In this document: positions 4,696-15,875 of the stretch, piece by piece
Layout of the letters: each line of letters opens with the position of its first letter
Numbering within the stretch: position 1 is the first letter of the stretch
Assembly (NCBI GenBank): GCA_965223545.1
Contig: OZ245006.1
Coordinates: 3,616,001 to 3,680,000 of the forward strand
Direction of reading: 5' to 3'
Origin: Planctomycetota bacterium
GTDB taxonomy: Bacteria; Planctomycetota; UBA1135; UBA2386
Length of the DNA stretch: 64,000 nucleotides
Made by a program: the position numbers and the translations under genes
The notes under the pieces: generated by a model
Databases searched by the model: none
What the model was told of the DNA's origin: nothing
What the model saw: the letters and a program-made list of their open reading frames with translations, nothing else

Positions 4696-5070
<375 letters not shown>

Positions 5071-5080
5071 AACGCGGAGC

Positions 5081-6964
5081 TCACTGCCCCGCCGCGGCCG
5101 CCACGACGCGCAGCCGGCTGGGCGGCAGGCACATGTTCTCGTCGCAGACTTGGTAGCGGAGCTCGCACGCGACCTCGGCACCGGACAGGAGCTCGCCGCT
5201 GATCTCGTGCCGGAACTCGAGCTGGCCTTCGTAGACCGTGATCTCCGGATCGGCGGGGTAGGGCGCGCCCGCCGGCAGCTGCCAATCGCCGACCGCGGTC
5301 ATGCCGCCGGGCAAGTCCAGGGTGACGGTCATCGGCACGTAGGGCTGTCCTTCGGGCACATCGCGGTAGGCGTGCCAGCCCTCGAGAATGGATACCGCCA
5401 AGACGAGCGCGTGGTTGCCGTCCTGCTGTGACGTGACCGCGAGGGCGCCGACGACCGGCTCGTCGAGGCTCGGCTCGAGCAAGACCGCCGACCCGACCTC
5501 GGGCAAGGCCGCGCGTGCGCGGGGCGCGCGCGCATCCACCAGCCACTTGAAGCCACCGATCTCGGTGAAGAACAGACGATCGCGGTTCTCGTCCAGCCAC
5601 GCCGCCCACTCCGCAGCGGTCGCGAAGCGCTCGTCGGTGTAGCGCTGGAGCAGGGTGCGGGCGAGCTGTGCGCGCTCGCCGTCGCCGGCCCGCAGCGCCC
5701 CGACCGCACGGTCGAGTAGAGCGGGATCGTGATTGGCGACACCGAAGGCGCGCAGCTCCTCGTCGACCACCAACTGGTACCAACCCTCGCCGCGCAGGTA
5801 CGGCAAGTCGGCCTCGATGCGCGCGCGGATCGCGGTTTCATCGCCGGCCAACGCCTCCCAGTCCTCTTCGGGCACGAAGCGCTTTACCGGCGCGAACCGC
5901 TCGGGCGCCTTCGGCAGAGGACTGTCGAGCGCTCGGCGTTCGACATCGGCGACACTCTCACCGGCCGCGATCCGCGCGCGGATCTCGGCGTTGCGCTCGC
6001 GAATGCGTTGAAGAAAGTACTCGTGCTGCGCGAGCTCCACGGCATGGCCGGCCTCGCTGATGCGGTCGAGCGCTTCGCGAACACCCGCGCGCGACATGAT
6101 TCCCGGTACCCGGCGCGCGATCGGCCGCCGGCCGTCGAACTTCGCGATGTAGTGGATCGCGTTGACGAACACCAGCTTGGCCTCTTCCGTCATGTACGTC
6201 GGTGAAGCGGCGAACCCCCAGTGGAACAGGTTGCCGTGCCGGCCCAGTGCCACCGCGTCCGGCCGCTTGGTGTTGACCCCGCCCGAGATCCACTCGACGT
6301 CCGGCGAATCGAGAAAGCCCGCATCGCTCGAGACGACGCCGATCAGCTGATCGTCGCCGTCGGTGTAGCCCTCGGTCTGCACCCGCCACATCGGCATCGT
6401 ATCGCCGAGGTCGAAGCGGCCGTAGGCCTGTGGCGTCGGCTGTTCTTCGATGGTCAGCGCGACCTGGTGCGGTGTGTGGAAGATCTCGTGGTCGACGCGC
6501 ATCCCGTGCGCGTGGGCATCGAGGCACATTCAAAGCCAGTCGAACTTGCTGCCGAGCGACTCGCCGACCCAAGGGGAGTTCTCCGCGATCAACAGCGCCG
6601 GCCGGTCGAACCCTTCGGGCAAGTAGACCGGGACGCCGCGCTCCGGTTCACGCAGCGCCTTCGGCCGGCAGTCGAACACGGTGACGTCGAAGTCGTCCGA
6701 CATCGCGGCGTCGTAGTCCGCGCCGTACACGACCTCGACGTGATCGAAGTGGTAACGCAGCAGAGCCTCGAACGCCGCCGTGCGCTCGCGGTAGAGGCGG
6801 TGCGTGCGCGGTTTGGCCAAGCTGGTGAACGGCAGCTTGGGAGCTTGCGGATCGTGACCGACGAGCAGCACCCGCGGCGCGGCTTCCGGTATCGGATCGA
6901 CCTGCGCCGGCACGGCGAAGCCGAGCGACAGCGACAGGGTCGAGGAAACGATGACGTGGCGCAT
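5081..6964 (-). CDS. Probable secreted selenoprotein (U-x-C motif) with C-terminal DsbD N-terminal-like disulfide domain; joins ORFs 6530-7030 and 5081-6529 across an in-frame TGA at 6530-6532
   Basis: Both ORFs are in the same frame, separated only by TGA: ...SKFDWL-TGA-MCLDAHAH. Signal peptide MRHVIVSS...VPAQ lies on the first part. C-terminal GWHAY...YQVCDENMCLPP is typical of DsbD-N. SECIS-like hairpin follows the TGA. Confidence 0.8.
6495..6513 (-). promoter_or_regulatory. Putative bacterial SECIS hairpin
   Basis: ACGCGCA-CGGGA-TGCGCGT, a perfect 7-bp stem with a G-containing 5-nt loop. The stem starts 16 nt after the UGA and the loop 23 nt after it. Confidence 0.65.
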
Positions 6965-7031
6965 GACAACCTCTGGGTCAGGAGAATCGCGTGTCCAGGG
7001 TAGCAAACCCGCGTTCTCGGCGAAGTGCACG

Positions 7032-9107
7032 CTAGTTCGCGACTGTCACCTGCTCACCGGTCTCCGGGTCCACGGCGTACACCACCGGGACCCACGGATC
7101 CGACACCATGATCACCTCGCGCACCGTGTCGTACGCAATCGCCCGACTCGGACCCTGGCCGTAGACGCCCGGTCTCGAGCTCGCGCTCCAAGAGCGGAGC
7201 AGAGACCGATCGCCGGTGTTGAGGTCCACCGAGAGCAAGTCAAGCGGCCCCAGCACCTGCACGAGCACGTAGGCGCGTTGGCGCGCCGCGTCGAGTGCGA
7301 TCGATCTCGCGCCGCGGAGCGATGGGCCGGAGGCCGACGCCGGACTCGAGATGGTCGTGTCCGCTCCCGAAGGGAGGTGCACGGCGACCAACGCCTGGTC
7401 GCTGATTCCCAGGACGCGGGAACGTGCCGCGTCGAACACCATGGGCGAGAGACGCCCGCGGTAGGCGCCGATTGGCGTAATCATCCCGGTTCGGAAGTCC
7501 AACTCACCGAGCCCTTCTGGGGTGTGGAGGCTCGCAACGACGTGCCCGACTCGGGGCGAATCCGTGATCGCCGCCGCAATCGAGCCCACCAAAGAGGCGG
7601 CACGAAACGCAGCCCCGGTGGTCAGACTGACTTCGAGCCCACCTATGGTCCCGATCCCGTACAAATGGCTGCCGGAGCTGTCGAGCGCGACGGAAGTAGG
7701 GCTCGGGATGGGCAGGTTCCAGCTGGAAACGTGGCGGCGGGCTCCGGTGCCGTCGATCGTGGTCAAGACACCGTGCGCCAGGGACTGGAGCACCGGGTCG
7801 CCGACGAGAACGAGGAGTTGACGACGGACATCGAACGTCATCGCCGATGCTGCCGGCACAGGGACTCCCGATCCGACGGCAATGTGAGTGGACAACGCAG
7901 GGCCGACGTACGGTGCCTTCGGTTCGACGATCATGAACACGTCGCCATCCAACGTCGTCGACCAAGAAGCACCAAGCAGACGATCGAAAGCGACACCCCG
8001 CCCAGGAAGTCGCGAGTACCACTTCGGCGCTATCGAGCTCGCCCGAAGGTCGTACATGCTCACGGAACCGAACCACCCTTCATCGATCGCATAGAGACTC
8101 TGGCTCGCTTCGTCCAGGATGGCGCGGCGCGAGGCCGTGTCTTCGCCCATGTCGGTCCGGTCCCCGGTCTGGTAGTCGACCCAAGCAAGTTGGTACCGCC
8201 CGTAGTAGCCGAAGCCATTGTCGACGAGAAGCGAGGCTCGAACGCCAGTCTGGTCGGGGGCGACTCCAACGATCGTTCCGCTGAGTCCGCTGCCACGACC
8301 ACCGACGCCACTCTGGGAGATCAGCAGCGCCGCTCCCGAGGACGGGTCTACCGCCCAAAGCCCACCGGCCGCCGCCACGAGCAACCGGTTGTTCGCCGCG
8401 TCGAAGGCAAGGTCCGAGACCGCCGGCATGGACGGCCAACCGCCGTCGATGCGCAGCCGGTCTCCCGTCGCGGTATCGACCGCGTAGAGCACCGTTCCGA
8501 ACCGGCCGGCCACGTAGGCGGTGCGCCCATCGGAATGGACCGCCAGGGCGACAATCTGCTGGAGGGACTCACCCGAACCGCGACCATCATCGGCAACCAA
8601 CCGCCGTTTCCCCGAGCGATCCACCGCGACCATGCGGCCGATGTTGCTGGCGACGTAGTACCGCTGGTTCTGTGGATCCCATGAACCCGCGGTCGGAAGT
8701 CCGATCGTCACTTGGTGGTGCACGGTGATCGAGCTCCGTCCCAGCTCGTCGCCCGCGGCCGACAGCGCCACGGCTGTCAGGTGATTCGCGCCCTCGGACA
8801 GTGGGACTCTGGCGGACCACGTCGCGAAACCATCGGAACTCGTCGCCGGAGTGGTCGCACCGACGGTCTCGACGACGAGGGCCGCGGAGCCGGCAGGAGT
8901 CGTCGCCCCGCGGACGAGGATCGACTCTTCATCCGTGAGCGACTCGGCGAACGGGAAGACGAACTGCACCGTTCGCACAGGGGCGGGAACCGGCGGCGAG
9001 TGCGAGCGACCTCCTCGGTTACATCCCGACGCCAGGACTGTGGCGCCAGCGCAGACTGTTAGGAACGCTGTCCGCGACACCGAACTCGGCCAACCCATGG
9101 CCACCAT
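7032..9107 (-). CDS. Putative lipoprotein with Ig-like domain and beta-propeller repeats
   Basis: Hydrophobic N-terminus ending LASGC. VPLSEGANHLTAVA Ig-like segment. Repeated AVDxxTGDR blades. Start uncertain (9098/9107). Confidence 0.7.
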   Translation of the reverse strand: MVAMGWPSSVSRTAFLTVCAGATVLASGCNRGGRSHSPPVPAPVRTVQFVFPFAESLTDEESILVRGATTPAGSAALVVETVGATTPATSSDGFATWSARVPLSEGANHLTAVALSAAGDELGRSSITVHHQVTIGLPTAGSWDPQNQRYYVASNIGRMVAVDRSGKRRLVADDGRGSGESLQQIVALAVHSDGRTAYVAGRFGTVLYAVDTATGDRLRIDGGWPSMPAVSDLAFDAANNRLLVAAAGGLWAVDPSSGAALLISQSGVGGRGSGLSGTIVGVAPDQTGVRASLLVDNGFGYYGRYQLAWVDYQTGDRTDMGEDTASRRAILDEASQSLYAIDEGWFGSVSMYDLRASSIAPKWYSRLPGRGVAFDRLLGASWSTTLDGDVFMIVEPKAPYVGPALSTHIAVGSGVPVPAASAMTFDVRRQLLVLVGDPVLQSLAHGVLTTIDGTGARRHVSSWNLPIPSPTSVALDSSGSHLYGIGTIGGLEVSLTTGAAFRAASLVGSIAAAITDSPRVGHVVASLHTPEGLGELDFRTGMITPIGAYRGRLSPMVFDAARSRVLGISDQALVAVHLPSGADTTISSPASASGPSLRGARSIALDAARQRAYVLVQVLGPLDLLSVDLNTGDRSLLRSWSASSRPGVYGQGPSRAIAYDTVREVIMVSDPWVPVVYAVDPETGEQVTVAN

Positions 9108-11229: not shown

Positions 11230-11812
11230 GGCGCTCGAGCCGGCCGGGGTCGACCGCGGCACCCCGCTCCACCAGCAGGCGCGCCACCGCCGGCAGCCGA
11301 TCGCGATCGCCGTGCGTTCCCTCGTGCCAGGCGTGCAACGCCCACTCGAGCGGCGTGCAGTCGTACTTCTCGTCGGCGAGGCCGAGGTCCGCGCCGGCAT
11401 CGACGAGCCGCGCGCCGAGCTCCGACAGGCCCATCAGGGCAGCCCAGTGGAGCGCCGTTGCGCCGAACAGGCCGCGCCGCGCGACGTCCGCACCGGCGTC
11501 GAGCAACACCAGCCCGACGCTCTCGGCGCCGAGGCTCGCCGCGGCGATGAGAAACGTGTCGCCGCTCTCGGCGTAGTCGAGGTCGGGGTCGACGCCGGCG
11601 CCGAGCAGGACCTCGGCGAGCGCGCGCGCCCGCTCCTGGTCGACGAAGCGCCCAAAGACGGCGTCGCAGACGACGTGCAGCGGCGGGAGCCGGTGCGGGC
11701 TGCCGTGTTCGAGCCCGATCGGCTCGTGGGCGCTCTTCGGATCGGCCGCGACCAGCGCCCGCAGCGCCTCGACGTCGCCCTCACGGATCGCCTTGCCCAC
11801 CGTATCGGTCAT
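11180..11812 (-). CDS. Ankyrin repeat protein, last gene of rtcBA operon
   Basis: PPLHVV, GDTFLIAAA, GATALHWAA, TPLEWAL repeats. ATGA overlap with the rtcA stop. Confidence 0.88.
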   Translation of the reverse strand: MTDTVGKAIREGDVEALRALVAADPKSAHEPIGLEHGSPHRLPPLHVVCDAVFGRFVDQERARALAEVLLGAGVDPDLDYAESGDTFLIAAASLGAESVGLVLLDAGADVARRGLFGATALHWAALMGLSELGARLVDAGADLGLADEKYDCTPLEWALHAWHEGTHGDRDRLPAVARLLVERGAAVDPGRLERLTGPEHAAMRAALSRP

Positions 11813-12852
11813 GGACCCAGTGCATCGGCCCGCACCGTCGTGCGCCAGCGTCCCGCGCCATTCTCGGCGAAATCGATCGTGGCCCCGGTGAACGCGGCCA
11901 AAACCGCGGCGTTGGTGCGGCTGTGCTCGGTCGGCGCGACGCACGAGAACTCGCCGCCGCCGGCGAGCACCATCGGCACCAAGAGCTGGTCGGCGAGGTG
12001 CGGTCCGACCGCCGCCTGGCTGCCGAGGTAGGCCCGCGCCTCCTGCGCGGCGGCGTGCGCGACGCGCTCGGCCGCGCGGCCCTTCTGGCCGAAGCCGGTG
12101 CACACCTCAGTCACGTGCTCGCTCTCGATCTCGACGTGCACGACATTGCCGGGCCCGGCCGACAACGGCTCCTCGTGCTGGCGGAGTTGTGGCGACCAGG
12201 GGGCGAGCTTGCGGCCGAGGACGTTGAGCTCGCGCTGGGCGATGGCGATCGGGAGGTGCGCGACCGTAGCGCGGCCGCGCACCGCGATCAGACCGCCGCG
12301 GTCGAGCAGCTCGAGCGGACGCAGCGGCTGCGGCGTGACTCTCACCACGAGGCTGCCACCCCCCGCCGGATAGAACCCGGCCCGTTCGATCTCGGCGTCG
12401 ACCGACGCGCCCATCCGACGCAGCAGGGGAAGGAACGTACGGTCGAGGAAGTCGAACGGCGGCGCGAACGGGTTGTGCGTGCCACCCTCGAGCCGCACGA
12501 CGCTCGGTCCCTCGGCGATCAGCAGCGCCGGCAGCACGGTCTGCAGAACGAGCGTCGTGCTACCGGCGGTGCCGACCGCGAAGTGGTACTCTCCACCGCG
12601 AGGCGGCCCCGGCGTGAACGCCAGCGCGCGGGCGCCGAGCGCCGCGCCGGTCACCGTGCCGCGACACACCTCGGCGGCCGCGCGCACCGCGGTCAAGTGC
12701 TGGCGCATGAGGCCGGGCTTTCTGCGGCCCTGGCGGATGGCGTGCAGCGAGCACGGCTGTCCGGTGCAGATCGCCATGGCGAGCGCCGAGCGGACGATCT
12801 GTCCGCCGCCCTCGCCCTGGCTGCCGTCGATCGTGATCATGGCGCGCGTCAT
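11809..12852 (-). CDS. rtcA: RNA 3'-terminal phosphate cyclase
   Basis: IDGSQGEGGGQIVRS, RRKPGLMRQHL, GTAGSTTLVLQT, GFYPAGGG, HLADQL. Confidence 0.97.
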   Translation of the reverse strand: MTRAMITIDGSQGEGGGQIVRSALAMAICTGQPCSLHAIRQGRRKPGLMRQHLTAVRAAAEVCRGTVTGAALGARALAFTPGPPRGGEYHFAVGTAGSTTLVLQTVLPALLIAEGPSVVRLEGGTHNPFAPPFDFLDRTFLPLLRRMGASVDAEIERAGFYPAGGGSLVVRVTPQPLRPLELLDRGGLIAVRGRATVAHLPIAIAQRELNVLGRKLAPWSPQLRQHEEPLSAGPGNVVHVEIESEHVTEVCTGFGQKGRAAERVAHAAAQEARAYLGSQAAVGPHLADQLLVPMVLAGGGEFSCVAPTEHSRTNAAVLAAFTGATIDFAENGAGRWRTTVRADALGP

Positions 12853-14069
12853 CCCTTCACGCAGACGACCTGGCGCAGCGTGTGCACGATGTCCACCAGC
12901 TCGGTCTGTGCCGCCATCACCGCGTCGATGTCCTTGTAGGCCATCGGCGTCTCGTCGATCACGGCGGCGTCCTTGCGGCACTCGATGCCCTCGGTAGCGG
13001 CGATGTGGTCCTCGAGCGAGAACTGCTTCTTGGCCTTGGTACGCGACAGCCTGCGGCCCGCCCCGTGGCTGCAGGAGTGGAAGCTCTCGGCGTTGCCCTT
13101 GCCGCGCACGATGAACGACCGCGCTCCCATCGACCCGGGAATGATGCCGAGCTCGCCGGCCGCTGCGCTCACGGCGCCCTTGCGAGTCACGTACACGTCT
13201 TCGCCGTAGTGCTCCTCGCGTTGCACGTAGTTGTGGTGGCAGTTGACCGCAAGCTCGGTGGTCGTGAACGCCGGCAGCTCCTTGCTCTGCGCCATCGTCT
13301 CCAAGATCGCGGCCATCATGACGTCGCGGTTGGTCCGCGCGTACCGCTGCGCCCAGTCGACCGCGAAGACGTAGTCGTCGAAGTGCTCCGCGCCCTCCTC
13401 GAAGTAGGCCAGGTCCTTGTCGGGCAGGTTGCTCATGTGCCGCTTCATGTCCTTCTGCGCGAGCTGGATGAAGTGCATGCCGATGCGGTTGCCGACGCCG
13501 CGCGAACCGCTGTGCAGCATCACCCACACGCGATCGGCCTCGTCGAGGCAGACCTCGATGAAGTGGTTGCCCGTGCCGAGCGTGCCGAGCTGGGCGTAGT
13601 GCCGGCCTCGATCCAGCCGTGGGTGCTTGGCGATGATCTGCTCATAGCCGGGGCGCAGCTTGCGCCACACCTGCTCGACGCGCGCGGGCGGACTGGCCCA
13701 TGAGCCTCGGTCGTTGCGGCCGCCGCGATGCGTGCGACCGTGCGGCACCGCCCGCTCGATCGCGGCGCGCAGTCCCTTCAACGACTCCGGCAGGTCACTG
13801 GCGTCGAGACTGGTGCGCACCGCCATCATCCCGCAACCGATGTCGACGCCGACGGCTGCCGGGATGATCGCGCCCTTGGTCGGGATCACGCTGCCCACCG
13901 TGGCGCCGATGCCGACGTGCACGTCGGGCATGGCCGCCACCCACTTGTGGATGAACGGCAGGGAAGCGACGTTGCGCAGCTGCGCGATCGCCTCGTCCTC
14001 GGCGGGCACGCCGTGGATCCAGGCCTTGATCGGGGCGCCGTCGGTCTTGATGCGCTGGTAGTCGGTCAT
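12849..14069 (-). CDS. rtcB: RNA-splicing/repair ligase RtcB
   Basis: MPDVH, VGVDIGCGM, GTGNHFIE, LHSGSRG, HHNY, IPGSMG, SCSHGAGR, C-terminal VCVKG. Confidence 0.98.
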   Translation of the reverse strand: MTDYQRIKTDGAPIKAWIHGVPAEDEAIAQLRNVASLPFIHKWVAAMPDVHVGIGATVGSVIPTKGAIIPAAVGVDIGCGMMAVRTSLDASDLPESLKGLRAAIERAVPHGRTHRGGRNDRGSWASPPARVEQVWRKLRPGYEQIIAKHPRLDRGRHYAQLGTLGTGNHFIEVCLDEADRVWVMLHSGSRGVGNRIGMHFIQLAQKDMKRHMSNLPDKDLAYFEEGAEHFDDYVFAVDWAQRYARTNRDVMMAAILETMAQSKELPAFTTTELAVNCHHNYVQREEHYGEDVYVTRKGAVSAAAGELGIIPGSMGARSFIVRGKGNAESFHSCSHGAGRRLSRTKAKKQFSLEDHIAATEGIECRKDAAVIDETPMAYKDIDAVMAAQTELVDIVHTLRQVVCVKG

Positions 14070-14108
14070 GGTAGTGCTCGTGGTTGGTGCAGGATGCACG
14101 GGCGGTAG

Positions 14109-14124
14109 AGCAGCTGCCGTGCCG
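14109..14124 (-). promoter_or_regulatory. Sigma54 (-24/-12) promoter of rtcBA
   Basis: CGGCACG-GCAG-CTGCT on the minus strand matches TGGCACG-N4-TTGC, 40 nt upstream of rtcB. A divergent sigma54 activator is adjacent. Confidence 0.85.
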
Positions 14125-14228
14125 ACCGCCGTCGGTTTCCCCAAGTCTCGGCACGAAGGTGAGTTGGAGCCAGGCCCGCGAATGGCGAGGACAGCCCAAT
14201 CTGATCGATTTGTATAGTGTTTATCTAT

Positions 14229-15875
14229 ATGGATCATCCCCGGCCCGTGACGGTGTTCGGCTTCCTCGGCACCCAGGTAGACCAGGGCTTCCGCGAAGAC
14301 CGGTGGGAGCGCTGGCGCCCCACGGTCGCGCTTTGCCAGCACGAGGACCTGCTGGTGGAGCACTTGGTGCTGTTCTCCGAGCGCGTGCGCGACCGCAAGC
14401 TCTGCGCGCAGGTGACGGACGACATCGCCCTGGTGTCGCCGGAGACTCGGGTCGAGCGGATCGAGCTCGAGCTGCGCAACCCGTGGGACTTCGAGGAGGT
14501 GTACGAGGTCCTGCACCGGTACTGCACCGGCTTCCCGTTCGACCCCGAGCGGCACACCTACCTGCTGCACATGACCACGGGCACGCACGTGACCCAGATC
14601 TGCTCGTTCTTGCTCGCCGAGACGCGGCACTTCCCGGCCTCGCTGCTGCAGACCGTGCCGCCGGGCCGCGATGCGCGCAGCCGCGGCGCCGCCGGCAGCT
14701 ACCAGATCATCGACCTCGACCTCTCGCGCTACGACCGCATCGCGCAGCGTTTCGCCGACGAGCATGCGCAGGGCCAGGCGCTGCTCAAGTCCGGCATCGC
14801 GACGCGCAACGAGGCGTTCAACGACCAGGTGCGGCAGATCGAGCAGGTGGCGCTGGCCTCCAGCGCGCCGATCCTGCTGCTGGGACCGACCGGCGCCGGC
14901 AAGTCCCAGCTCGCGGCGCGCATCTACGCGCTCAAGAAGCAGCGCCACAAGACGGCGGAGCGGTTCGTCGAGGTCAATTGCGCCACCCTGCGCGGCGACC
15001 AGGCGATGGCGGCGCTGTTCGGCCACGTCAAGGGCGCGTTCACCGGCGCGCAGCGCGACCGGCCCGGTCTGTTGCGCACCGCCGACGGCGGCATCCTGTT
15101 CCTCGACGAGATCGGTGAGCTCGGCCTCGACGAGCAGGCGATGCTGCTGCGGGCCCTCGAAGAGGGCAAGTTCTTGCCGGTGGGCGCGGACCGTGAGGTC
15201 GAGAGTCGTTTCCAGCTGGTCGCCGGCACCAACTGCGATTTGGGCGAACGCGTCGCCGCCGGCACCTTCCGCGAAGACCTGCTAGCGCGCATCAATCTGT
15301 GGACGTTCCGTCTGCCCGGGCTGGGCGAGCGCCGCGAGGACATCGAGCCCAACGTCGACTACGAACTGGCGCAGTTCGCCGCGCGCGAGGGGCGCAAAGT
15401 CGCCTTCAGCCGCGAAGCCCGCGCGCGCTACCTCGCCTTCGCGACCGGTCCCGAAGGACACTGGCGCGGCAACTTCCGCGACCTCAACGCCAGCGTCACG
15501 CGGCTCGCCACCCTGTGCCGCGGCGGCCGCATCACGCGGACCGACGTCGACCGCGAGTTGGCGCGGCTGCGCGCAGACTGGCGGCACGCGGCTGGCCCGG
15601 CCGACGCCGCCACTGCGGATGCGGCCCTGCTGCGTGGACTCCTCGGCGACGAGGCGGTCGCGGACCTCGATCTGTTCGACGTCGTGCAGCTCGCCGAGGT
15701 CGTGCGCACGTGCCAGCGGAGCCCGACCCTCTCGGCCGCCGGGCGTATCCTGTTCGCGGCTTCGCGCCGCGCGCGCAGCAGCACGAATGACGCCGACCGC
15801 GTGCGCAAGTACCTGCGCCGATTCGGCCTCGACTTCGCGGCCGTCAACCGCGCGCCGGCGCAACCCGGCCCGTGA
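14229..15875 (+). CDS. rtcR: Sigma54-dependent RNA repair transcriptional activator RtcR
   Basis: N-terminal RWERWRPTVALCQH and LHMTTGTHV (RtcR CARF-like domain). GPTGAGKS, GAFTGA, LFLDEIG. C-terminal NDADRVRKYLRRFGL. Confidence 0.97.
   Translation: MDHPRPVTVFGFLGTQVDQGFREDRWERWRPTVALCQHEDLLVEHLVLFSERVRDRKLCAQVTDDIALVSPETRVERIELELRNPWDFEEVYEVLHRYCTGFPFDPERHTYLLHMTTGTHVTQICSFLLAETRHFPASLLQTVPPGRDARSRGAAGSYQIIDLDLSRYDRIAQRFADEHAQGQALLKSGIATRNEAFNDQVRQIEQVALASSAPILLLGPTGAGKSQLAARIYALKKQRHKTAERFVEVNCATLRGDQAMAALFGHVKGAFTGAQRDRPGLLRTADGGILFLDEIGELGLDEQAMLLRALEEGKFLPVGADREVESRFQLVAGTNCDLGERVAAGTFREDLLARINLWTFRLPGLGERREDIEPNVDYELAQFAAREGRKVAFSREARARYLAFATGPEGHWRGNFRDLNASVTRLATLCRGGRITRTDVDRELARLRADWRHAAGPADAATADAALLRGLLGDEAVADLDLFDVVQLAEVVRTCQRSPTLSAAGRILFAASRRARSSTNDADRVRKYLRRFGLDFAAVNRAPAQPGP

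Follow-up and report, generated by a model that had tools for sequence, protein, structure and literature searches.

A read-through gene in the window

The window analysed here is a stretch of 64,000 nucleotides from a Planctomycetota bacterium (GenBank assembly GCA_965223545.1, contig OZ245006.1, positions 3,616,001 to 3,680,000 of the forward strand), and the subject of this report is a probable gene for an exported selenoprotein at positions 5081 to 6964 of that window. Two minus-strand open reading frames (ORFs; 6530..7030 and 5081..6529) lie in the same frame, with a TGA codon at 6530-6532 as their sole separator, in the context TGG CTT TGA ATG TGC, or W-L-U-M-C with selenocysteine (Sec, U) at the TGA. 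The read-through frame extends from the ATG at 6962-6964 to a terminal TGA at 5081-5083, contains neither frameshifts nor further stops, and encodes 627 residues. An earlier note, made from the sequence without database searches, had pointed out this pair of ORFs (leaving the strand unstated) and had described a signal peptide on the first of them, a DsbD-N-like domain with a CxxxxC site, and a 7-bp hairpin with a CGGGA loop 16 nt past the UGA; all of these were found again, and are arranged on the minus strand as follows, with the basis of each assignment in brackets.

6970..6974, minus strand: AGAGG, a putative Shine-Dalgarno-like element 5 nt ahead of the ATG (read from the sequence)
5081..6964, minus strand: whole coding sequence of the proposed selenoprotein (full-length alignment with uninterrupted homologues of 617-665 amino acids, aa)
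6899..6964, minus strand: predicted signal peptide, approximately residues 1-22, MRHVIVSSTLSLSLGFAVPAQV (sequence, and similar hydrophobic leaders at the N-termini of homologues)
6095..6874, minus strand: ThuA-like or class-I glutamine-amidotransferase (GATase)-like domain, approximately residues 31-290, extending across the TGA (AlphaFold2 (AF2), VIA and Foldseek)
6530..6532, minus strand: TGA, the proposed selenocysteine codon, U145 (aligned with the invariant Cys of Cys-form homologues)
6524..6526, minus strand: codon of Cys147, the U-x-C partner (invariant in alignment A3 of full-length homologues and in the 28 Sec-form domains of alignment A5)
6495..6513, minus strand: bacterial selenocysteine insertion sequence (bSECIS) hairpin, 7-bp stem, apical loop CGGGA at 6502-6506 (conservation, covariation and published constraints)
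5525..6091, minus strand: helical middle domain, approximately residues 292-480, with conserved RYT...W..W...LFFTE.GG (secondary structure of the model, and invariant columns)
5096..5455, minus strand: DsbD-alpha-type (DsbD_N) immunoglobulin-like domain, approximately residues 504-623 (Pfam PF11412, Foldseek and profile search)
5129..5146, minus strand: C607-x4-C612 pair of DsbD_N, codons 5144-5146 and 5129-5131 (invariant in A3)

The predicted signal peptide MRHVIVSSTLSLSLGFAVPAQV suggests that the protein is exported. A scan of positions 4900-7300 for promoters and terminators gave no promoter-like site and one terminator-like site, which lies within the selenoprotein gene and is at the level expected by chance.

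The best 120 matches listed in a database search with the read-through protein fall into two groups. Eighty-one of them, with 45-100% identity and at most 77% coverage of the query, correspond to the part after the TGA only; they are mostly 460-500 aa long (range 347-702), their named sources are Planctomycetota metagenome-assembled genomes (MAGs), and one of the names under which they are deposited is 'protein-disulfide reductase DsbD N-terminal domain-containing protein'. This bears out the earlier suspicion that annotators have split the gene. The other 39 matches (35-41% identity, 88-99% coverage) are full-length, mostly 594-665 aa, two of them having extra domains (814 and 957 aa), and the 144 residues ahead of the TGA are likewise conserved in their alignment. 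At the column of U145 the full-length homologues read KFDWYCQCLE or KTDWYCLCLDAHAHH, with Cys at 145 and at 147, so that real homologues match the motif DWxCxCLDAxAH that the earlier note had given for related secreted proteins. Both cysteines are at least 90% conserved in an alignment of 16 sequences (A1) and invariant in the 38 full-length sequences of A3; Cys at the TGA column of homologues was what the read-through interpretation had anticipated.

The TGA itself is kept in relatives. A search of 61 genomes (the source and 60 relatives) with stops read through produced a match in 37, and by our own count exactly one TGA is present in each of the 38 rows that extend over residue 145. In each of the 28 loci retrieved from related genomes the motif is U-x-C-[LM], with the TGA at the same column, in four sequence types (DWLU[ML]CL..AHG, HHGULCL, FGUTCL and GYIUICM) and at identities to the window protein down to 22%. 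Among 80 loci from named genomes, TGA is present in 21, belonging to Planctomycetota, Pirellulaceae, Mariniblastus and unclassified MAGs, and Cys in 59, mostly from Bacteroidota (Mucilaginibacter, Pedobacter, Flavobacterium, Prevotella, Alistipes and others), but also from two Gammaproteobacteria MAGs, one Pirellulaceae and one record labelled Clostridium sp. CAG:302. Gene transfer or mis-binning may possibly account for the Cys forms outside the Bacteroidota and Planctomycetota (the Gammaproteobacteria MAG loci L090 and L091, and L104 from Clostridium sp. CAG:302). In 301 genomes sampled evenly from the phylum, with nine candidates scored per genome and copy numbers therefore lower bounds, the domain is present in 23; one TGA occurs in 26 of the 27 rows that span the site and none in the remaining one (G323), these counts referring to the presence of a TGA and not to its position.

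The genome of the window has a single copy of the gene. Several Sec paralogues of different subfamilies are present in some relatives, the genome G032 having at least four TGA matches in the 301-genome sample and eleven partial matches in the 61-genome search. One TGA was also noted in matches to the middle or C-terminal part of the protein (G012:C32:126708-126977, G029:C154:10380-10850, G010:C151:6261-6620, G023:C6:3682397-3682714 and G024:C655:41-541); at locus L025, the TGA in such a match appears to be the ordinary stop that ends a short form of about 430 aa. Tandem Cys-form paralogues occupy a single locus in L122 (at 4285 and 7721) and L126 (at 2834 and 4927), in genomes of Prevotella and Seonamhaeicola.

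These distributions bear on whether the TGA is an error of sequencing or assembly, or the gene a pseudogene. The four sequencing runs that contain all of the sampled words (X1-X4) come from one study, and X1 and X4 may include the source of this DNA, which leaves some room for a shared error; contigs of X1 (record 1) and X4 (record 14), representing two samples of that study, nevertheless span the TGA with 0 differences, in answer to the check for read errors that had been proposed. Two runs from two other studies (X5 and X6) contain parts of the gene, none of them over the TGA, and the listed sequencing runs with matches to the sampled words include no RNA run. Given a TGA at this column in every one of the 28 loci of other genomes and in 21 of the 80 named loci, through many assemblies, and given an otherwise open frame, an error or a pseudogene is exceedingly improbable.

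Alternatively, translation might stop at TGA145 and restart at the adjacent ATG (TGAATG coupling), giving an exported product of 144 residues and a 482-residue 'DsbD_N domain protein' from two genes. There is indeed an ATG immediately 3' of the TGA, and the piece of 460-500 aa is listed as a protein in databases, as in the 81 of 120 best matches described above. In many relatives, however, the codon after the TGA is CTG, AAC, ACC/ACG, ATC/ATT, GAG or CAG, and is thus no usual start; the Cys forms are single ORFs; and the signal peptide would be on the upstream piece only, though DsbD_N belongs outside the cytoplasm. A pair of genes is also at odds with the single compact domain that is predicted straight across the TGA and with the hairpin downstream, which covaries, is lost in Cys forms and resembles the hairpin of selD (see below), and it is accordingly given very little credence beside a single gene with a selenocysteine codon.

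The hairpin after the UGA and the decoding machinery

The hairpin begins 16 nt past the UGA, where ACGCGCA (6507-6513) forms seven perfect pairs with TGCGCGT (6495-6501) around the loop CGGGA (6502-6506), at a distance of 23 nt from UGA to loop. For bSECIS elements, a review of prokaryotic selenoproteins from May 2026 (PMC13188914) gives a loop of 3-9 nt, an upper stem of 4-16 bp, a UGA-to-loop distance of 16-37 nt, a G in the first two loop positions (mostly G[G|U]) and a minimum free energy of at most -7.5 kcal/mol. The hairpin of the window falls within every one of these published limits, with a 5-nt loop, a 7-bp stem, a G at loop position 2 followed by another G, a distance of 23 nt, and a minimum free energy of -10.6 kcal/mol (computed on the identical 30-nt segment of locus L051).

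Each of the 28 related loci has a hairpin at this distance from its UGA, and the stem sequences differ. In the ungapped alignment of these 28 sequences (A2), C27 and G28 of the loop are invariant, and the helix of eight pairs (columns 19-26 and 32-39) has 76.8% of its cells paired, compared with 57.4% in shuffles, and 45 cells with changes on both sides, compared with 21.4. Covariation scores 0.435, compared with 0.157 for shuffled alignments; 0 of 500 shuffles reach 0.435, and controls in which the helix was slid along the alignment give at most 0.198. At the pair 24-34, 12 sequences have CG and 12 others have GC. A one-base bulge in some variants of the hairpin lowers the simple count of paired cells.

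Comparison of Sec and Cys forms amounts to a natural experiment with a clear outcome: 21 of 21 Sec loci have the hairpin (mean -9.9 kcal/mol, range -13.4 to -6.7, over a 30-nt segment), whereas a hairpin with a CGGGN loop is present in 0 of 59 Cys loci (mean -3.1 kcal/mol, range -8.5 to 0.0), the nearest structure being a shifted 6-bp hairpin with a GCAUA loop in L126 (-6.2). The same residues A-H-G-L-R are encoded by GCU CAU GGC UUA CGC in the Cys-form locus L067 and by GCG CAC GGG UUG CGC in the Sec-form locus L066, and the four synonymous differences of L067 destroy the stem. The A-H-G codons of Sec forms are in part held by the stem and loop, and conservation there therefore need not reflect the protein. 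The recurrence of the CGGGN loop suggests that it is the motif recognized by SelB in this lineage.

Decoding machinery, the presence of which had been set as a check, is complete in the 8.1-Mb genome: selA (464 bits), selB (318 bits), selD (346 bits) and tRNA-Sec (74 bits) all score above curated cut-offs, and ARAGORN, run on locus L013, reports a tRNA-SeC with the anticodon tca. The selD gene has an in-frame TGA of its own (GGGU-AAKLP), and thus encodes a selenoprotein itself; its hairpin, of 9 bp with a CGGGC loop, begins 27 nt past the Sec-UGA, and one SelB would read both this hairpin and that of the new family. Because a conserved hairpin of the SECIS type is combined with the full decoding machinery, UGA145 is interpreted as a selenocysteine codon. 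An alternative genetic code was also weighed and discarded, since TGA serves as the terminal stop of this very gene and its lone internal TGA is explained by the selenocysteine machinery and SECIS. The region is most probably a single gene for an exported selenoprotein, with UGA145 read as selenocysteine, at a probability put at roughly 0.93 from these sequence comparisons.

The selD locus (L010, G000:C1:1262504-1266421) is on the minus strand with selA directly upstream (G000:C1:1265001-1266329), and selB and tRNA-Sec are located away from this pair, at approximately 7.66 Mb and 7.95 Mb. The tRNA-Sec model has one further match (L014, G000:C1:422811-422898), which scores 48.7 bits against a gathering score of 47 and is probably a tRNA with a long arm, such as Ser or Leu.

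Domains, fold and possible function

The full-length structural model has a mean predicted local distance difference test score (pLDDT) of 86.3 and a predicted template modelling score (pTM) of 0.72, with residues 1-24 below a pLDDT of 50. The AF2 model of residues 25-290 (pLDDT 90.5, pTM 0.91) is a single domain straight across the TGA, for which VIA finds 1t0b (Z 13.5, root-mean-square deviation 3.4, 197 residues aligned), 4jqs (Z 13.2), 2gk3 (Z 12.2) and the planctomycete protein 3rht (Z 12.1), with 181-198 residues aligned across the four, and for which Foldseek finds the GATase domains of GMP synthetases (E approximately 5e-5). At the level of sequence, DsbD_N is the sole Pfam match of the protein at E<=1, neither ThuA (PF06283) nor a GATase family being found; NCBIfam release 20.0 yields 0 families at E<=1 for the read-through protein; and a profile search against solved structures matched the DsbD_N part alone, with no tie for the N-terminal domain. 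A search of the ESM Atlas with the Cys homologue P0097 returned unnamed Bacteroidota clusters at 0.95-0.97 and, below 0.9, ThuA and HEAT clusters that are leads only. The N-terminal domain, which the earlier note had left unnamed, thus has, by model-based structure matches, a ThuA-like or GATase1-like fold, without membership in a profile family. True GATases have a Cys-His-Glu triad, the Cys of which, their nucleophile, sits at a strand-to-helix elbow. The elbow after strand 123-126 ('ALLIA') of the N-terminal domain, as placed by the order of secondary-structure elements and not by superposition, has no conserved Cys, and U145 is about 18 residues further on, in or beside a beta-strand.

The middle domain (residues 292-480) is helical and always accompanies the N-terminal domain in relatives. 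The DsbD_N domain matches Pfam PF11412 with 53.4 bits against a cut-off of 25 (3.2e-14, residues 509-617); the best Foldseek match of the C-terminal domain is 6c29_A, the N-terminal domain of ScsB (8.8e-6), with 1jpe, 1vrs and 1l6p also found; and a profile of the family aligns with E. coli DsbD-alpha (2.9e-5), placing C607 and C612, which are invariant in A3 and belong to the conserved segment YQ.C....C.PP, on the two Cys of 'TYQGCaDAGFCYPP'. Most subfamilies have DsbD_N at the C-terminus, and L045 and L047 have it at the N-terminus. Within the 28 Sec-form domains of A5, U145, C147, H159, P165, G229, K233, R242, G250 and P255 are invariant and E224 is at least 90% conserved, a set of residues that, to judge from the alignment, looks like an active site. 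Selenocysteine usually marks a catalytic redox residue, and for that reason U145 is a pointer to where the active site lies in this uncharacterised ThuA-like domain.

A possible mechanism follows the order of these domains. After export, U145 and C147 would form a redox-active selenenylsulfide/selenol-thiol centre, near which the invariant His159, Lys233 and Arg242 and the nearly invariant Glu224 may lie. This centre would exchange electrons with C607 and C612 of the protein's own DsbD-alpha domain, which would be served in turn by TlpA-like thioredoxins or DsbD, and the ThuA-like domain would be the end-point, most likely the terminal reductase, of an extracytoplasmic thiol relay. The odds that the protein is a periplasmic selenol/thiol redox enzyme in an electron relay of the DsbD/TlpA type are roughly even. 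The proposal of an exported redox selenoprotein of 627 aa has thus held in its length and its read-through of the selenocysteine codon, the redox part staying conditional.

The gene context of the Cys forms is suggestive of such a relay. Homologues fused to TlpA-like thioredoxin domains were found (P0079, P0117, L088 and L074), and of 13 loci scanned in Bacteroidota and Gammaproteobacteria, nine have an adjacent or fused gene of the AhpC/TSA-Redoxin type, seven have SusD and two have DsbD, other neighbours being DUF4843, PKD-like lipoproteins and M16 or HtrA-like peptidases. A same-strand Cys-form locus recurs in Bacteroidota (L070, L079, L074, L088, L095, L097, L126, L069 and L077), comprising SusC/SusD, DUF4843, a PKD-like lipoprotein, M16 or HtrA-like peptidases, one to four TlpA-like thioredoxins (DUF4369 + AhpC/TSA) and sometimes a full DsbD; no description of it was found in the papers searched. 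This locus has the appearance of a system that imports substrates with disulfides and reduces them, and the Bacteroidota gene context prompts the guess that the enzyme acts on peptides or proteins of this kind after their import.

The two parts of a single homologue were also docked. Residues 28-478 of P0097 against residues 500-628 gave a score of 0.56, the best of three controls giving 0.01; at least 78% of contacts are shared between the runs, and the pLDDT of the partner is at least 79. In calibration, 116 of 157 solved complexes and 2 of 215 mismatched pairs reached the mark used, counts that apply only roughly to P0097, for which an alignment made for this analysis was used; scores of 0.60 or less that reached the mark include 18 of the 157 complexes and both of the passing mismatches. 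The docking model lends weak support to contact between the two parts.

Two other functions are conceivable for a genuine selenoprotein with this architecture. In the first, U145-x-C147, His159 and the His of C-L-D-A-H-A-H would be a site for a metal or metalloid (for example in the handling of Cu, Hg, As or Se), and DsbD_N would only keep that site reduced. His159 is invariant, the top structural match of the C-terminal domain, ScsB, was deposited as a 'putative metal resistance protein', and U-x-C is listed for the SO_0444 family Cu/Zn efflux transporter (NF033936) in Table 1 of PMC13188914. His151 and His153, however, are unconserved (forms from Sphingobacteriia read CQCLENDALN), the A-H-G codons of Sec forms are under the constraint of the SECIS stem and loop already described, and the loci scanned have no recurring metal-resistance genes beside the gene, so that a metal site is regarded as unlikely.

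In the second, electrons would flow in reverse, with U-x-C acting as an oxidant or isomerase of substrate thiols. The C-x-C disulfides of known oxidoreductases are strained and oxidising, and the CPC motif of Mia40 and the CGC motif of Erv2 are centres of the oxidant or isomerase type. Against this, DsbD-alpha domains are electron donors in reducing pathways, the TlpA-like thioredoxins and DsbD of the Bacteroidota loci belong to reducing pathways, and no DsbB- or Erv-like oxidase was seen nearby in the loci scanned. An oxidising role is considered quite unlikely compared with the reducing relay.

Several points weigh against the explanation developed here, in which a SECIS hairpin directs selenocysteine into a redox enzyme of a thiol relay. 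With respect to the hairpin, the folding energy of the single 60-nt stretch is unexceptional in this G+C-rich DNA (z -0.52, with 59 of 200 shuffles equal or better); no Rfam family matches positions 6380-6620 of the window at E<=10, a result that is uninformative either way; and kinship among the sequences inflates measures of covariation based on shuffles, the stem moreover lying within coding sequence. Hairpin energy alone proves nothing, and the weight therefore rests on the conserved place of the hairpin, its covariation and its absence from Cys forms. With respect to function, the redox role of U-x-C is drawn from the motif, the domain fusion and the neighbourhood; the docking signal is faint; and Sec subfamilies of approximately 430 aa have no DsbD_N, so that the relay could not run within a single protein in every member. 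Around the planctomycete genes no partner is conserved: an AhpC/TSA neighbour is present at one of the seven loci scanned, and five neighbours of the gene in the window (the 694-aa upstream ORF, YjbR, the O-methyltransferase, the Crp-like protein and a 530-aa ORF) had no match in 109 related loci by tblastn at E<=1e-5. With the relay kept as its conditional part, the explanation as a whole is still judged to be very probable.

Relation to known systems and neighbouring genes

New families of selenoproteins turn up regularly. Table 1 of the review cited above (PMC13188914) has 119 families or subfamilies, and none of them has PF11412, a ThuA-like fold or a matching architecture; NCBIfam, in which the models named there are included, gave no match either. 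The only entries of the same table with U-x-C are thioredoxin-like Sec.2 (PF13192) and the SO_0444 family transporter (NF033936), and the sole selenocysteine in a protein of the GATase type is that of the CTP-synthase-related GxUxG family. Open-access full-text literature on selenoproteins in combination with Planctomycetota, DsbD, ThuA or DUF4843 yielded no description of the family. Table S9 of a 2016 planctomycete genome paper (PMC4807772) has an unnamed 'hypothetical' Sec candidate from a planctomycete, with a Cys homologue in Rhodopirellula, which may or may not belong to the new family.

The most similar known systems each differ from the protein in some respect. The N-terminal domains of DsbD-alpha and ScsB (PF11412; 1l6p, 1jpe, 1vrs and 6c29) resemble its C-terminal domain in sequence, in fold and in the aligned Cys pair, but the spacing is C-x4-C in the new protein and C-x5-C in DsbD-alpha; the new protein has neither the membrane domain nor the thioredoxin-like gamma domain of DsbD; and its DsbD-alpha domain, being fused to a Sec-bearing ThuA-like domain, would be a relay module and not the enzyme itself. 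ThuA-like and GATase1-like proteins of unknown function (1t0b, 4jqs, 2gk3 and 3rht) and class-I glutamine amidotransferases are alike in the fold of the N-terminal domain, whereas the new protein has no Pfam ThuA or GATase match and, to judge from the order of its secondary-structure elements, appears to lack the conserved elbow Cys of GATases and to have its U-x-C some 18 residues beyond the elbow. The CTP-synthase-related family, as described in Table 1 of the review, shares the presence of selenocysteine in a fold of the GATase superfamily, but places it in the GxUxG nucleophile elbow, in contrast to [WHY]-x-U-x-C-[LM] elsewhere in the fold. Exported selenoproteins of the thioredoxin fold (DsbA-like, DsbG-like, thiol:disulfide interchange protein and TlpA-type UGC) are similar in having Sec and Cys forms, a bSECIS within the ORF and a context of extracytoplasmic thiol redox chemistry, but their motifs as tabulated are UxxC or UGC, in contrast to U-x-C in a fold other than thioredoxin. 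Thioredoxin-like Sec.2 (PF13192) and the SO_0444 transporter (NF033936) have the same Sec-Cys spacing in folds and families that, from the same table, are unrelated, with no match to the new protein.

The protein is judged to be a member of a new selenoprotein family, with canonical decoding of selenocysteine and a fold new to selenoproteins, that is systematically truncated in public annotation. Deposits from Planctomycetota appear as truncated 'DsbD N-terminal domain protein' entries, from which the signal peptide and half of the catalytic domain have been lost; recognition of the selenocysteine codon restores the real protein, and a model of the family would mend annotation wherever the Sec form occurs. 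The catalogue of selenoproteins gains a family with several Sec subfamilies, outside the dominant thioredoxin fold and with the rare U-x-C spacing, the ThuA-like domain of which is widespread as a Cys form in Bacteroidota, gut genera included, and the link to DsbD/TlpA electron relays makes its function approachable by experiment. A more tentative and somewhat doubtful extension is that the ThuA-like domain, with its invariant U/C-x-C, His, Lys and Arg and its nearly invariant Glu, defines an unrecognised class of extracytoplasmic seleno/thiol enzymes, which would be the first terminal acceptor of DsbD/TlpA electrons without a thioredoxin fold, almost wholly changed over to selenocysteine in Planctomycetota (several subfamilies and up to four Sec copies per genome) and serving in Bacteroidota, with SusC/D and peptidases, in the reduction of imported disulfide-rich substrates.

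The neighbourhood of the gene in the window (YjbR, an O-methyltransferase, the 694-aa unknown, a Crp-like protein and RtcA/RtcB) gives no hint of function. The RtcA (RNA 3'-phosphate cyclase) and RtcB (RNA ligase) pair is at 11809-15026 on the minus strand, and its ORFs as listed are much longer than the Pfam domains, the true starts probably being further in. On the plus strand, positions 107-1501 encode a protein with five CarboxypepD_reg-like repeats (1.5e-57), which is probably secreted or bound to the cell surface.

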